Positions 717 through 12,913 of a DNA stretch of 12,930 nt are shown one piece after another. Position numbers and translations under genes: made by a program. This DNA is from a virus (Duplodnaviria; Heunggongvirae; Uroviricota; Caudoviricetes): positions 1-12,930 of IMG/VR virus record IMGVR_UViG_2675903661_000019. The stretch is one strand, 5' to 3'. Every line of letters begins with the position of its first letter. Within the stretch, counting starts at the first letter, position 1. The notes below the pieces were generated by a model that did not search any database, was not told the DNA's origin, and saw only the letters and a program-made list of their open reading frames with translations.

Positions 717-762
717 AGCCAGCGCAATTTTGCGCTTTGCTTTAATCTCAGTGAGTTACCGC
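717..762. repeat. 46-bp direct repeat, copy 2 (overlaps 3' end of the 93-aa ORF)
   Basis: AGCCAGCGCAATTTTGCGCTTTGCTTTAATCTCAGTGAGTTACCGC; a third, shorter copy of the GCGCA-N5-TGCGCT core is at 402-416. Confidence 0.7.
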
Positions 763-1037
763 CGCAACCGTTCCGGCTTCTTCCAGTGGTACGTGATTTT
801 CTCCTTCTCCCGATACATCTCCACGCGGCGACGGTATGTCAGCAACTCAAGGACTCTGGTTCGTATGTTGCGCATATCCACGCCGTTAAGCTCAATACCA
901 TCACGGCGCATCACCTCAGCAACAACACGCGCATAATTTTCGGCTGTCACGCTGTCCGGCTGCGTGGTCTGTTCGTCAGCCTGCTGGCTGATTCCAGAGA
1001 CGCGGCGGATTAATCGCAGTATTTCGGCTTCTGTCAT
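756..1037 (-). CDS. hypothetical protein (93 aa) immediately downstream of large terminase
   Basis: Minus-strand ORF; ATG at 1037 lies 14 nt after the terL stop with GAGG about 9 nt upstream; basic C-terminus; last codons overlap the 46-bp direct repeat copy at 717-762. No family recognised. Confidence 0.45.
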   Translation of the reverse strand: MTEAEILRLIRRVSGISQQADEQTTQPDSVTAENYARVVAEVMRRDGIELNGVDMRNIRTRVLELLTYRRRVEMYREKEKITYHWKKPERLRR

Positions 1038-1050
1038 GCTGCTGACCTCA

Positions 1051-2712
1051 TTACACCCCGCTAAATTCTTCCAGTTTCTGGCGGTGGCTGTCGCTTATAT
1101 CAAAAGCAAAATCCTCATGCTCTGCCTGGAATGTACCAAACGCCATCAGCGCCGCTACGCTCGGGTCTATCTTGTTCGGTGATTTTTTCTTGTTCGGCTT
1201 GATATTGGCGTTCGCGTCACTCTGCATCACGACGTTACTCATCGACCAGGACAACACCGGATCGCCACGATGCACAATCACCCTGCGGTTAACAAAAACT
1301 TCGAACGATTTCGCCGCCGGACTGAATCTGAGGTAGGTTTGCGGGAACGGCTCCACCTCAAAACCAGCCCCCTGTAATTGCGTCCTGAGATGCGTGGCGT
1401 TCCACGTATCAAAGCCCACCAGCCTGATATTAAATTTCTCCGCATCCTGCATGATGTCATCTCTGATCCGGTCGTAATCAATGCAGTCACCTGGCGTTGT
1501 GCGTATCCAGCCCGCTTTAGCCCACTGGCGATAGACAGCGCGGTTTTTATTGGCGGGGTTCTGTAGCTGGAACTCCGGCAGATAATGACGGGAAACCAGC
1601 ATGATATTTTTACCGACCGGAAAGGCATAGCACACGCTGGAAATATCGCTGGTTGATGATAAGTCCAGCCCCGCGTAACACTCCTGCCCGTGTAAATCTT
1701 CCTCCGTGAACGTTCCGGCACACTCAGCCCATGCGCCGTTACCCATCCACGGGGTAGCCCCCTGGCACCAGATATTAAATCGCTTTGTCATCATCTCCAC
1801 CCATTGCGACGGAATACCCCGCGCTTTCTGGATGGTTGAGGCCAGTTTTTCACGATCCACGGAAACATCGATGTTAGGGTTAGCCTTTATCCACATCGCC
1901 GGATCATCAACCTCGTTTTCGTCGTCCAGCTCGTAAATCAGCACAAAAATTGAATCGTTGACCTCTTCGCCGTCCAGGATCTGGCAGCAATAATCATAGT
2001 GCTGTTTACAGGTTGAAACGACGTTACTGCCCGATGTGGTAATGGCAAATAACAGCCCTTCGGGACGTGCGCCCATCCCCAGCTCAAGCGCGGAATAAAC
2101 GCCGTTATCGGGGTGTAGGTGGTATTCGTCCACGATGGAAAGGCTGGGGTTTGTTCCCTCGATGGTTGCCGCTTTTGCTGCCAGCGGCTTTAACAGGCTG
2201 TTGCTTTTCGGGTGCATCACCTTGTGGGCCTGAATATTCACCCGCCTGCGTAACGGTCGGGATAAAAGGCACATCTGACGCGCATCATCAAAAACGATCC
2301 GCGCCTGGTCACGGCTCACCGCTGCGGTGTAAATATCCTGCTGCCCGTTCTCCATAATCAGAAACCAGTTAGCCAGAATCGCGGCGGTCGTGGATTTCGC
2401 ATTTTTGCGCGGCACTTCGATAAAGGCGCTCGTGTATTTGCGCCGTCCGGTGGCCTTAACCTTAAAGCCGAGGATGCACGCAAAGGCGAACTGCTGCCAC
2501 GGCTCCAGCTCAATGGGTCTGCCACGCATCGGCCCTTTTACGTGCGGGCACACCCTGGAAAAGGCAATAAACCGCTCCACAACCTCACGATCGAACGTGT
2601 AAAGGGGGCTTTCAAGGTCCGAAAAGTACCGTTTAACGGCCTGTTTCAGCCGTTTACAGGCCGGAATTTTGCCCGTTTTTACGTCTTCTGCGTACTTATT
2701 CCAGGCGGTCAA
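1051..2712 (-). CDS. terL: terminase large subunit (HK97-like, Terminase_1 type)
   Basis: 553-aa ORF; deviant Walker A-like PRKNAKST and Walker B-like LSIVDEYH near the N-terminus, long C-terminal nuclease-size region; apparent TTG start at 2712 with AGAGGA about 5 nt upstream; overlaps terS 3' end by 17 nt. Confidence 0.85.
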   Translation of the reverse strand: MTAWNKYAEDVKTGKIPACKRLKQAVKRYFSDLESPLYTFDREVVERFIAFSRVCPHVKGPMRGRPIELEPWQQFAFACILGFKVKATGRRKYTSAFIEVPRKNAKSTTAAILANWFLIMENGQQDIYTAAVSRDQARIVFDDARQMCLLSRPLRRRVNIQAHKVMHPKSNSLLKPLAAKAATIEGTNPSLSIVDEYHLHPDNGVYSALELGMGARPEGLLFAITTSGSNVVSTCKQHYDYCCQILDGEEVNDSIFVLIYELDDENEVDDPAMWIKANPNIDVSVDREKLASTIQKARGIPSQWVEMMTKRFNIWCQGATPWMGNGAWAECAGTFTEEDLHGQECYAGLDLSSTSDISSVCYAFPVGKNIMLVSRHYLPEFQLQNPANKNRAVYRQWAKAGWIRTTPGDCIDYDRIRDDIMQDAEKFNIRLVGFDTWNATHLRTQLQGAGFEVEPFPQTYLRFSPAAKSFEVFVNRRVIVHRGDPVLSWSMSNVVMQSDANANIKPNKKKSPNKIDPSVAALMAFGTFQAEHEDFAFDISDSHRQKLEEFSGV

Positions 2713-3052
2713 GCTCGTCCTCTTCTTCTGTTTCCGGTGGATTTTTACGGCGGCTTATCGGGTCAAAACCGAGCAAGGAGGCCATTTTTATCATCACTCT
2801 TTCAGCGTCGGATTTTGCGCTTAATGCGGGGTTTCTGCTCTCGCCGCCCTGACTGTTAACAATGATGAACCCGCGCGCCGCAAGGTCTGCAACGGCTTTC
2901 CGGTAAATGGAGTAGTTGACACAATACAGTTCCAGATTGCTCCAGTCGGCGGGGGTCAGGTCTCCCCGTTCCGCAAGCTGCCGCGATTTTTCCCGCCACT
3001 GCTTCACGGCGATATCATCCAGGTAGGCGGGGGCTTTCGGTGGTCTTGCCAT
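2696..3052 (-). CDS. terS: terminase small subunit (P27-like)
   Basis: 118-aa ORF directly upstream of and overlapping terL; N-terminal MARPPKAP and acidic C-terminal tail typical of P27-family small terminases paired with HNH and HK97-type TerL. Confidence 0.75.
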   Translation of the reverse strand: MARPPKAPAYLDDIAVKQWREKSRQLAERGDLTPADWSNLELYCVNYSIYRKAVADLAARGFIIVNSQGGESRNPALSAKSDAERVMIKMASLLGFDPISRRKNPPETEEEDELDRLE

Positions 3053-3120
3053 GCTTATTTTTTCGCCAGATTATTTTTCAAAAAATTCCCGTGCATAAAA
3101 ATTTGAGGAGGCGTTCGGTT

Positions 3121-3170
3121 CTGGGCGGGGTCGGGTTCGTCCTGAAAACTCCCCCCACCCCGTCCGGCTG
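3121..3170. other. candidate cos site region between HNH and terS
   Basis: GC-rich imperfect dyad GGGCGGGGTCGGG ... CCCCCCACCCCG inside the 289-bp non-coding gap between HNH stop (3342) and terS start (3052), the usual cos position in HNH-dependent cos-type HK97-like modules. Confidence 0.3.
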
Positions 3171-3341
3171 CCTCATCAGCGATTGCGGAAACATTCCATA
3201 ACCTCGCGGTCACGGTCGTTTAATCGCGTCGCTGTGATGCGTTCTGCGCGTCCTGATGCTTTATCTTTATGCCCTGTTTCCTGTGCCTTCCATGCGTCAC
3301 GCTGCCTTATAAGTCCACGGATAAGGCGGTTTTGTTCCCGC

Positions 3342-3782
3342 TCATTCATCAGCGCCATACATCCAGTTATTGCGGTTAGCGGCCCGTTCTTCCTCCTCAC
3401 GGAATCCACCCGCAGCACGCTTGTTTTTTGTGGACGGATCAAGCCATTTCGTTTTCTGGTTATGACACGCCTGGCACAATGGCTGATGATTCCACTCAGG
3501 CCAGAAGAGAACATCATTACCGCCATCGATTGGGATAATGTGATCCACCACCACGGCGGGCGTGTATATTCCTTTTTCCAGGCAATGCGCACATAACGGG
3601 TTTTTACTCAGATACATGGCGCGGTATTTCTCCCACTGCCTCGTATACCCTCGCTCCCTGCTGCTGCCTCTCCGGCTGTCCTGCTGCTGGCGTGCGCTGC
3701 GTCTGTGCTCCTCACACTTGCCGGACTTCACGCGCCTGTTGCAGCCTGGTTCTGTACATCGTCTTAATGGTTGCCACGGCAT
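3342..3782 (-). CDS. HNH endonuclease (packaging-associated)
   Basis: 146-aa ORF with Cys-rich N-terminus (CTEPGC, CEEH) and HNH core VVDHIIPIDGGND...LCQACHNQKT; sits upstream of terS as in cos-type HK97-like packaging modules; start overlaps stop of the upstream connector gene. Confidence 0.85.
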   Translation of the reverse strand: MPWQPLRRCTEPGCNRRVKSGKCEEHRRSARQQQDSRRGSSRERGYTRQWEKYRAMYLSKNPLCAHCLEKGIYTPAVVVDHIIPIDGGNDVLFWPEWNHQPLCQACHNQKTKWLDPSTKNKRAAGGFREEEERAANRNNWMYGADE

Positions 3783-4078
3783 CAGTACACCCCCACATCA
3801 CGGTAAGCCGTCCAGAGTGCGCCAATCGTCATGGGTACGTGTGTTTTTGCGTTATCCGCGACAATCTGGCGATTCTCATACAGGTGAGCGATAAACATCA
3901 TGCAGCCAATCTTTATGGCTGGCGTGAACTCCAGCCCGTCATCAAAGCGCCTGCCTATGTGTATCTGGCACGCCTCAAGCGATGCGGCAATGTATCCGCT
4001 GATTAACTGGTCTTCCTCGTCGCCATCGATGCGGCAATGGAGTTTCACTTCTTCCAGGGTGATAAGTTCTTCTGTCAT
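3782..4078 (-). CDS. head-tail connector protein, gp6-like
   Basis: 98-aa ORF beginning MTEELITLEEVKLHCRIDGDEEDQLISGYIAAS, the characteristic N-terminal signature of gp6-like head-tail connector proteins; ATGA start/stop overlap with the upstream gene. Confidence 0.75.
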   Translation of the reverse strand: MTEELITLEEVKLHCRIDGDEEDQLISGYIAASLEACQIHIGRRFDDGLEFTPAIKIGCMMFIAHLYENRQIVADNAKTHVPMTIGALWTAYRDVGVY

Positions 4079-11371: not shown

Positions 11372-11599
11372 TTATTCTCCGGTGTGGGGCGCTTTATTAT
11401 TTTCGATAATATCCATCGCCTTATCCAGTTCATCAATAACAGGCGATAGTAATGTCTGAATGGCTGCAAACATTAATGACGAAGATTCTTCGCCAGATTC
11501 CGGCGCTTCAATTAATTTGCCTAACAACGCATTCATTTCGCGCGCTTTAATTAATGCGTTTTCAGAATGAATAAGAACATCAAAGGGTATTTTATGCAT
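11372..11599 (-). CDS. hypothetical acidic protein (75 aa)
   Basis: ATG at 11599 preceded by AGGGGGTGA; acidic, helical-looking sequence; first confidently coding gene of the leftward early operon. Confidence 0.5.
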   Translation of the reverse strand: MHKIPFDVLIHSENALIKAREMNALLGKLIEAPESGEESSSLMFAAIQTLLSPVIDELDKAMDIIENNKAPHTGE

Positions 11600-12056
11600 G
11601 ACTCACCCCCTGGCGAATACGGGCGACAAAAATCAGATGTGTGTGCGGCAGCTGGGCGCGTGCTTCGCCTTCTGTTGCTGCCGTGACGGTAAAGAGTGAT
11701 CTTTGTTTTTCCTGGCACTGCATAAAGCGCCAGACAAAGTAAGGGCGTGCGGATACAGCCATGTGAAAGGCTCCCAAAGTGAAATTAAGGAGTCTCGCTA
11801 CTACGCTGCTAAACGGGGTGGCGAGACGTAACAGGGTTAGCAGACTGGCACTTTGGGAACCAGCGAGCGCAAAGGCTCCCCCGTTACGCCCCGCCATAAT
11901 GCGGGTATGGGTAGGCTTACGGACACAAAAAAACCGCATATCGGAATGTAAGCGGCTGTCCGCCAAAGTATTCAGGCTGCTAAACCCGGTCGCCATGTGG
12001 GCGACGGGGGAAGCATACAGCCCCGTTATAATTTTTTGCAAGCGGTTTTTACGCAT
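11592..12056 (-). CDS. candidate ORF (154 aa, very basic), doubtful; may instead be structured leader RNA
   Basis: ATG at 12056 with CAGGGG 8 nt upstream; 3' end overlaps the next start as CATGCATAA. Its last ~50 codons and the downstream junction are duplicated in the preceding segment (12049-12200). Composition (Ala/Arg/Leu/Ser-rich, few acidic residues) is atypical. Confidence 0.25.
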   Translation of the reverse strand: MRKNRLQKIITGLYASPVAHMATGFSSLNTLADSRLHSDMRFFCVRKPTHTRIMAGRNGGAFALAGSQSASLLTLLRLATPFSSVVARLLNFTLGAFHMAVSARPYFVWRFMQCQEKQRSLFTVTAATEGEARAQLPHTHLIFVARIRQGVSHA

Positions 12057-12330
12057 GATGTGACCCCTGACGAATACGGGCGGCAAATACAGCAACACAA
12101 CCAGACGGGCAACGGCTACGCGCTTCGCGTTCCGTCCAGGCGGTTACGTGGATGATTTGAGATTCTCCGGCACTCAGGGCCAGAAAACGCCAGATGTATT
12201 TATTCAGGTTGTGCGAGTCCCGCCCTTGCGGGTGTGTGATATGATTTCTCATAGCTACCTCGATACTTTCGCTATCGTTGGTGGTCAGAGGCTGCGAAAG
12301 GACGGCAATCCTTTTCAGCCTCGTTTGCAT

Positions 12331-12430
12331 TGAGTGATAAACACTCAGCTGGATTCCAGTATAATCACTAAGTGGAATCCACTTCAAGCGTTTTGTTTTG
12401 GTCTTTTTCGTGTATACTGGATTCCAGTAA
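12331..12430. promoter_or_regulatory. divergent overlapping promoters with three TGGAWTCCA palindromic operators
   Basis: TGGATTCCA at 12350-12358 and 12418-12426, TGGAATCCA at 12373-12381; plus-strand -10 TATAAT at 12360-12365 and TATACT at 12413-12418; minus-strand TTGAAG, 18 nt spacer, TATACT (rc of 12358-12387); palindrome GAGTG-ATAAA-CACTC at 12332-12346. Confidence 0.6.
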
Positions 12431-12448
12431 TCACAAAGGGAACCAGAA

Positions 12449-12628
12449 ATGGAAAGAGACCATATCAATAACAAATCACAGAAATTACAGGCTCGCGCCC
12501 CGCATGAAGTTGTTGAGGCTATGGAGCAAGTAAAAGAAACAGGCGAGAGCACTGCGCAATTTATCGTTACAGCCATGCGAGGCGAGATCAAACGCCGCCA
12601 GCGCCGTAAGGCCAAAGAATCAGAATAA
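12449..12628 (+). CDS. small ribbon-helix-helix-like DNA-binding regulator (59 aa)
   Basis: Not in the ORF track (below 60 aa). ATG at 12449 with AAGGGA upstream, TAA at 12626-12628. KLQARAP (beta strand), HEVVEAMEQVKETGESTAQFIVTAM (helix, G-x-S turn, helix) then a basic tail fits the RHH pattern; transcribed divergently from an operator-rich region. Confidence 0.55.
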   Translation: MERDHINNKSQKLQARAPHEVVEAMEQVKETGESTAQFIVTAMRGEIKRRQRRKAKESE

Positions 12629-12685
12629 TCACTATCAGCGCCGTGGTGTGAGGTACTACGGCGCATTGCTTTACAGGGCAGTACC

Positions 12686-12913
12686 ATGACCAACAACACA
12701 CTATCACCAATACAAGACACGCAAACGCAAGATGATGAAATCATCCGGCAAAGGCAGTCAGAAGCCTGCGCCAGAGTTGAGGAAGAACTAACCAGAACAA
12801 AAATACCACCACCAGCGCCGCGCTTAATGCCACCAGAAAAATTTGCCCTTGAAGATTTTGTCGAGAAATACCCACGGCGGTTAAAAGCCACTAAAAACCG
12901 ACCGCCTGGCTGA
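12686..12913 (+). CDS. hypothetical protein (75 aa)
   Basis: ORF downstream of the RHH gene on the same strand; weak SD (AGGG); Pro-rich centre. No family recognised. Confidence 0.4.
   Translation: MTNNTLSPIQDTQTQDDEIIRQRQSEACARVEEELTRTKIPPPAPRLMPPEKFALEDFVEKYPRRLKATKNRPPG

Follow-up and report, generated by a model that had tools for sequence, protein, structure and literature searches.

A candidate HNH-dependent cos site in the HNH-terS interval of an Escherichia coli capsid-forming PICI

Capsid-forming PICIs (cf-PICIs) fill their own small capsids with no DNA but their own and take their tails from unrelated phages. The stretch of DNA analysed here (12,930 nt, hereafter the window) raises the question of which of its nucleotides form the site from which such an element is packaged. 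The original prediction placed a cos site in what it took to be a 289-bp non-coding gap between the HNH endonuclease gene and terS, and drew attention to a GC-rich dyad within this gap.

The window is an E. coli cf-PICI. Its packaging genes all lie on the minus strand, where capsid, protease, portal and connector genes precede HNH, a small ORF, terS and terL. Pfam matches identify the genes for the major capsid protein (7393–6236), the prohead protease (6294–5623), the portal (5621–4410), a head-completion protein (4455–4075) and a gp6-like connector (4078–3782), as well as those for an HNH endonuclease of 146 aa (3782–3342; Pfam HNH, E 9.4e-08; PHROG 144, E 4.4e-43), a P27-family small terminase of 118 aa (terS, 3052–2696; Pfam Terminase_4, E 3.4e-24) and a large terminase of 553 aa (terL, 2712–1051; Pfam TerL_ATPase and TerL_nuclease), all on the minus strand. 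The HNH protein, which is 38% identical to gp74 of HK97 (E 1e-18), is by homology the nuclease cofactor of the packaging system, and TerL is 27% identical to HK97 TerL (E 5e-47). TerS is 36% identical to the TerS of SfV (E 9e-21) and has no similarity to HK97 gp1 that is detectable by BLASTP; we therefore dropped HK97 TerS as a template for the cf-PICI TerS and regarded SfV and ST64B as the proper comparators. The gene order agrees with the published Proteobacteria cf-PICI type, in which hnh-terS-terL belong to one packaging operon (bioRxiv 10.1101/2022.09.08.507074). In that type, morphogenesis genes are followed by hnh-terS-terL, tail genes are lacking and the replication module is of the PICI kind. 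The element is a 15-kb satellite without tail genes, unlike a phage. Its integrase lies outside the window, and a 584-aa ORF (11070–9316, minus strand) corresponds, in position only, to the gene annotated as a DNA primase in relatives. Among 5,426 complete E. coli genomes, 530 have matches to region 2600–3900, the O157:H7 copies being 93.6% identical to it. Two further observations concern the rest of the window. Directly downstream of terL, a 93-aa ORF (756–1037, minus strand) matches PHROG 1561 (E 1.1e-55), carries no Pfam domain and is possibly another conserved member of the packaging operon of cf-PICIs. Within 11592–12891 the sole long ORFs, of 168 and 280 aa, have GTG starts, lie on the minus strand and are of odd composition, and both GC and AT skew flip sign at about 11500–12900; genes on the plus strand, or the island's regulatory end, may lie in this region.

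The interval 3053–3341 does separate the HNH stop (3342) from the terS start (3052) on the minus strand, but only 3053–3175 of it is non-coding. The remainder is occupied by a small conserved gene encoding 57 aa (3349–3176, minus strand), which aligns along its entire length with PHROG 3173 (E 7.9e-35), whose ATG overlaps the HNH stop codon and whose 174 nt take up more than half (about 60%) of the supposed gap. PGAP annotated this ORF as a hypothetical protein in six of the six E. coli copies that we fetched, starting it at an upstream ATG that yields 60–61 aa. Among 101 unique variants the frame is open in nearly all, the C-terminus is conserved as RDRE[VL][MR]ECFRNR, and the median pN is 0.11 as against a pS of 0.33, from which we conclude that the ORF is under purifying selection. 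The PGAP calls, the PHROG 3173 match, the open frame in the variants and the excess of pS over pN together identify it as a real gene. Its product is a basic protein of 57–61 aa; neither it nor its homologues, every one of which is named 'hypothetical protein', contained a Pfam domain, and an AlphaFold2 model built on a shallow alignment is a single long helix (pLDDT 76). The gene is not present in the relatives from Xenorhabdus and Pasteurellaceae, where the HNH stop abuts a G-run described below, so that it does not belong to the core site. In the Acinetobacter phage AbIPP1, a small ORF stands at the equivalent position (L378:142–360). On the basis of the ORF map and near-gapless conservation, we consider the 123-bp true intergenic region (3053–3175) to be the candidate cos region.

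To describe the conserved anatomy of this region we used two sets of relatives. The first was collected with a DNA pattern taken from the G-run block, so that conservation of this block is circular within that set. The second was collected through the TerS protein, with one genome per species, and is independent of the DNA; 38 of its loci, drawn from Enterobacterales, Aeromonas and Pasteurellaceae, were usable. Our alignment of 35 sequences comprises 30 distinct loci of this second set, four E. coli copies and the element itself, and it reveals about 100 nt of non-coding DNA that is highly conserved and almost free of gaps. Read along the minus strand, a G-run is followed after 33 nt by a C-rich 10-mer and then by CTCAAATTTTT, a GC core and a T-tract. 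Even in the most distant loci, in which TerS identity falls to about 63–69%, the G-run and the sequence that follows the 10-mer (block B) are nearly unchanged.

The first conserved element, block A (3161–3139, minus strand), would belong to the end packaged last; it consists of the G-run GGGGTGGGGGG (3161–3151), an A, and the semi-conserved GTTTTCAGGAC (3149–3139). The G-run, which has the form GGGGTGGGGG(G), is invariant or nearly so in the TerS-anchored loci. It is followed by a spacer (3138–3118, minus strand) of almost fixed length and hypervariable sequence: its columns (approximately 33–50 of the alignment) are the least conserved, and its length is almost constant from E. coli to Haemophilus. 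Many different spacer versions occur among IMG/VR copies, and an identical TerS protein (WP_000113645.1) is found together with different spacers; the spacer diverges much faster than both of its flanks. Next comes the predicted 10-nt cohesive end (3117–3108, minus strand), which is moderately conserved, reading CGAACGCCTC here and CACCCGCCCC in most relatives, two sequences that match at only six of 10 positions. Block B (3107–3071, minus strand), which would belong to the end packaged first, contains the most conserved non-coding columns of the alignment, a result that holds without the DNA pattern first used for collecting loci. It is made up of the highly conserved CTCAAATTTTT (3107–3097), a conserved GC core (3096–3087; ATGCACGGGA here, ACGCACGGTG in relatives), an A and a T-tract (3086–3080) and GAAAAATAA (3079–3071), the last two being conserved and appearing in the alignment as the T-tract plus GAAAATAA (3086–3071).

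The ends of assembled contigs point to the same 10-mer. The metagenomic contig IMGVR_UViG_3300022664_000095 (15,518 bp) contains a whole cf-PICI, from terS to HNH and the small ORF; it comprises two stretches, L242 (nt 1–14263) and L090 (nt 14264–15518), whose outer ends are both true contig ends. The contig opens with CTCAAATTTTTACGCACGG, with the ATG of terS at nt 61, and closes with GTTTTCAGGACAAAACCCAAGCCGCAAGGCAC, so that it begins at CTCAAATTTTT and stops 10 nt upstream of CTCAAATTTTT. When it is aligned to the window, its first nucleotide corresponds to 3107, its last to 3118, and the missing 10 nt to 3117–3108. In integrated relatives, CACCCGCCCC lies between the sequences that form the two ends of this contig. 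The chance of a contig terminus at that position alone is roughly 1 in 15,000, and we had recorded these ends before the cohesive-end result for SfI discussed below was known to us. That the 10-mer is missing rather than duplicated would fit the removal of 3' overhangs by end repair. Three other records agree with the site less precisely: an E. coli-type isolate contig (L067) with a true end stops 1 nt into the 10-mer (3108–3117), LR881103.1 lacks 69 nt centred on the border of the 10-mer, and the cf-PICI part of PQ569648.1 lacks the whole gap. Both of the latter are filed as phages. LR881103.1 ('Escherichia phage vB_KppS-Ant') is a 16.5-kb cf-PICI-like element, and PQ569648.1 ('Klebsiella phage P12620-1') is a 106.5-kb record whose last approximately 15.9 kb are a cf-PICI; the fusion of this part with unrelated DNA at the third nucleotide of terS suggests a chimeric assembly.

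The mapping of the cut draws on one complete contig, metagenomic and from a relative, and one further contig end. Searches for additional cos-terminated contigs with an E. coli-type spacer pattern (32 stretches) and a Klebsiella-type block B pattern (81 stretches) produced no new example, and a metagenome scan found a real contig end at the site in none of 86 stretches. Several apparent ends were rejected. Those of L026, L113, L053, L101, L174, L264 and L358 are storage-chunk boundaries and not contig ends; the only real contig ends are those of L242/L090, L067 and L126, the last of which ends elsewhere, 67 nt after block A. We also rejected as a cut site the break that immediately follows block A in a Shigella flexneri SFBU1023 copy (L133; CP182556.1:1161608–1164940). 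Here a deletion has occurred between a CCCCGCC repeat in the spacer and another in terS codons 6–8, which marks the copy as decayed. The 10-mer and block B are lost together with the first part of terS, and this copy should be unable to package.

Joining the record ends of HK97, SfV, ST64B and AbIPP1 gave phage junctions that we compared with our alignment. The junction of SfV reads GGGGAGGGGCGGG-N31-TGCCCGCCCC-ATCGTTTTTTT and that of ST64B reads GGGAAGGGGCGGG-N31-TGCCCGCCCC-CTCGAATTTTTATACCCGCGAAAAAT, giving the common pattern GGGGCGGG-N31-TGCCCGCCCC-(A/C)TCG(A)ATTTTT; a typical cf-PICI reads GGGGTGGGGG-N33-CACCCGCCCC-CTCAAATTTTTACGCACGGTGATTTTTTT. In HK97 a G-run stands 32 nt ahead of the last 10 nt of the record, after which comes GTTTGAATTTAACGCTAACCCGATTTTTTT. 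Indeed, in all of the HNH-dependent cos phages that we compared (SfV, HK97, ST64B and AbIPP1) a G-run precedes the C-rich run or cohesive end by 29–33 nt, on the last-packaged side; we found no description of a role for it in the HK97 literature that we searched. For SfI, whose terminases are >90% identical to those of SfV (PMC3851460), the virion DNA ends were sequenced directly, and comparison with the prophage identified a 10-nt gap, 5'-TGCCCGCCCC-3', as the cohesive end (PMC3636060). This cohesive end falls at the position homologous to 3108–3117; the polarity of the overhang is not stated in the SfI paper (PMC3636060). The joined ends of HK97 and SfV, and also of ST64B, bear out the rule on which the original prediction relied, that cos lies between hnh and terS.

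The dyad itself fared less well. It exists, with GGGCGGGGTCGGG at 3123–3135 and CCCCCCACCCCG at 3151–3162 on the plus strand, and a repeat search delimits arms of 13 nt (3123–3135 and 3153–3165) that are 85% complementary and 17 nt apart, but it is not conserved as it was drawn. Only the arm that coincides with the G-run (3161–3151) is kept; the C-rich arm (CCCGACCCCGCCC at 3135–3123, minus strand) is lineage-specific and sits inside the hypervariable spacer of fixed length, and the predicted cut (3108–3117) lies beside the dyad, 6–15 nt past its C-rich arm on the terS side. It could be argued that the dyad forms a hairpin in RNA and, as an intrinsic terminator or attenuator, divides the morphogenesis genes and small ORF from terS-terL. 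The element's own sequence does fold with the dyad as a stem (–43 kcal/mol for the 128-nt gap, z –2.3), only modestly beyond chance, 3 of 200 shuffles folding as well, and for the G-run and the conserved C-rich 10-mer the share of cells that could pair is 87%, as against 57–71% in slid controls, a figure that is uninformative on structure because neither side varies. Against such a hairpin, the dyad lacks a downstream U-run, 17 nt separate its arms where a loop of 3–8 nt would be expected, and a scan of the minus strand of the gap found neither a terminator-like nor a sigma-70-like promoter site. Across the 35 aligned sequences the dyad can pair in only 60% of cells, compared with 42–55% when the partner columns are slid, and neither the dyad pairing nor the pairing of the G-run with the 10-mer shows covariation. 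RNAalifold gave a consensus of –1.9 kcal/mol with 5 pairs and no compensatory pairs, Rfam had no match at E <= 1, and the published cf-PICI gene order is that of a single packaging operon (bioRxiv 10.1101/2022.09.08.507074). We consider an RNA hairpin very improbable. Conserved sequence and strict spacing, together with the absence of covariation, argue instead for a protein–DNA site.

The AT-rich sequence at 3071–3107 might instead be mainly a promoter or operator for terS-terL, with packaging directed from elsewhere. This sequence is conserved and directly upstream of terS, and conservation alone cannot separate a regulatory from a packaging site. However, the blank sigma-70 scan, the occurrence of the same motif order at the genome ends of SfV, ST64B and HK97, and the contig termini at the border of block B all speak against this explanation, which we judge very improbable; a dual role of the AT-rich part of block B, as promoter and in packaging, is possible. 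The dyad might also be a chance GC-rich inverted repeat without function, or packaging might be headful (pac). In keeping with chance, the 9-mer GGGGTGGGG, with one mismatch allowed, has 4 matches in the whole window against 3.5 expected and is not over-represented, and the C-rich arm is restricted to its own lineage. Yet the G-run and block B are kept across bacterial families at nearly fixed spacing, an HNH protein and a TerL of the HK97 type are present, the relative's contig has defined ends with a 10-nt gap, and cohesive cos ends have been reported in packaged cf-PICI DNA (bioRxiv 10.1101/2025.02.11.637232). An origin by chance, or a pac mechanism, appears to us extremely improbable.

Taken together, the gene homologies, the conservation, the motif layout common to SfV, ST64B and HK97, the mapped end of SfI and the contig termini support the placement of a cos site in the HNH-terS interval, and indicate that 3053–3175 is very probably the cos site of the E. 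coli cf-PICI, of the HNH-dependent kind found in SfV, ST64B and HK97. Within it we predict, from sequence comparison, a 10-nt cohesive end at 3108–3117 (minus strand CGAACGCCTC) with staggered nicks at both of its borders. In HK97 the stretch bound by TerS, a GC core and then an A-tract, extends from +15 to +29, the DNA has 10-nt 3' overhangs (PMC11331095), and cleavage is stimulated by the HNH protein gp74 (PMC11331095, PMC9410871). By analogy, the TerS-binding region of the satellite is predicted at approximately 3093–3079; this prediction is one by analogy only, since the two TerS proteins have no detectable similarity. We propose that after induction and replication the satellite's TerS would bind the GC core and T-tract just within the left end (about +15 to +29 relative to the cut, approximately 3093–3079), and that TerL, with the HNH protein, would nick one strand at each border of the 10-mer (3117–3108), the nicks being 10 nt apart, and so generate 10-nt cohesive ends, probably with 3'-protruding overhangs. 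Packaging would then start at the terS side and stop at the next cos. On the last-packaged end, the G-run precedes the cut by about three helical turns; it probably helps termination or positions the nuclease, and the spacer would act as a ruler.

These observations also raise a broader idea, which we put forward as an unlikely one: that the G-run and the C-rich 10-mer, with a spacer of about 30 nt between them, form a common and so far undescribed core of HNH-dependent cos sites, in which the G-run would serve in docking or termination, the spacer would be no more than a ruler, and the PHROG 3173 protein of enterobacterial cf-PICIs would be an accessory factor specific to the satellites. Such a core may span HK97, SfV, ST64B, an Acinetobacter phage and cf-PICIs of several bacterial families. 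Its G-run may, by analogy, be the counterpart of lambda cosQ, perhaps positioning HNH or TerL, and the PHROG 3173 protein, encoded beside the G-run, may aid the exclusive packaging of satellite over helper DNA.

The literature that we searched, in which subscription papers were not covered, contained no mapped cf-PICI cos site, and the coordinates proposed here make such mapping directly testable. Because cos defines what is packaged, the site offers a handle for engineering cf-PICIs: the 123-bp cassette might render a plasmid transducible, and a mutated site should leave the island immobile. The conserved motif can also serve as a marker for cos sites of the cf-PICI type in genomes, and identifies LR881103.1, together with part of PQ569648.1, as cf-PICI sequence in records filed as phages. 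Since an expected site was found in the expected place, the result is confirmatory rather than surprising; the kind of site is already known and the biology ordinary, and its main use lies in engineering.

The closest counterparts of the candidate site are the cos sites of the Shigella and Salmonella phages SfI, SfV and ST64B, which combine an HNH protein with a P27-family TerS. TerS is homologous (36% identity to that of SfV), the site lies between hnh and terS, and a G-run is followed after 31–33 nt by a C-rich 10-mer (xxCCCGCCCC in most cf-PICIs) and then by CTCGAATTTTT or CTCAAATTTTT, a GC core and an A/T tract. They differ in that the element's CGAACGCCTC has CGCC as the only exact run in common with the SfI 10-mer, in that the downstream A/T tract consists of T's in cf-PICIs and of A's in SfV and ST64B, and in that enterobacterial cf-PICIs carry a small gene between HNH and cos. 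The likeness to HK97 is looser. TerL and HNH are homologous, a G-run precedes the C-rich 10-nt overhang by 32 nt, and the left ends run in parallel when numbered from the cut: ACGC occupies +12 to +15 in both HK97 and the cf-PICI contig, and G-A-T7 begins at +22 in the former and at +21 in the latter. However, the TerS proteins are without detectable similarity, the sequence of the 10-mer differs, and the distance from HNH to cos is 319 nt in HK97. The cos site of lambda (cosQ-cosN-cosB) combines a nicking site with a terminase-binding region on the first-packaged end and a termination element a few helical turns off on the last-packaged end. The G-run would be the counterpart of cosQ in such an arrangement. 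Lambda differs in its 12-nt 5' overhangs, its IHF site and its lack of an HNH protein; its small terminase, gpNu1, is unrelated and comes with R-sites. Among staphylococcal systems, bioRxiv 10.1101/2022.09.08.507074 cites a requirement for HNH, TerS and TerL in the packaging of phi12 and phiSLT, and describes cos SaPIs as carrying a copy of the helper's cos and using the helper's terminase. Unlike the cos SaPIs, the satellite studied here has its own terminase, its own HNH protein and, as we propose, its own cos.
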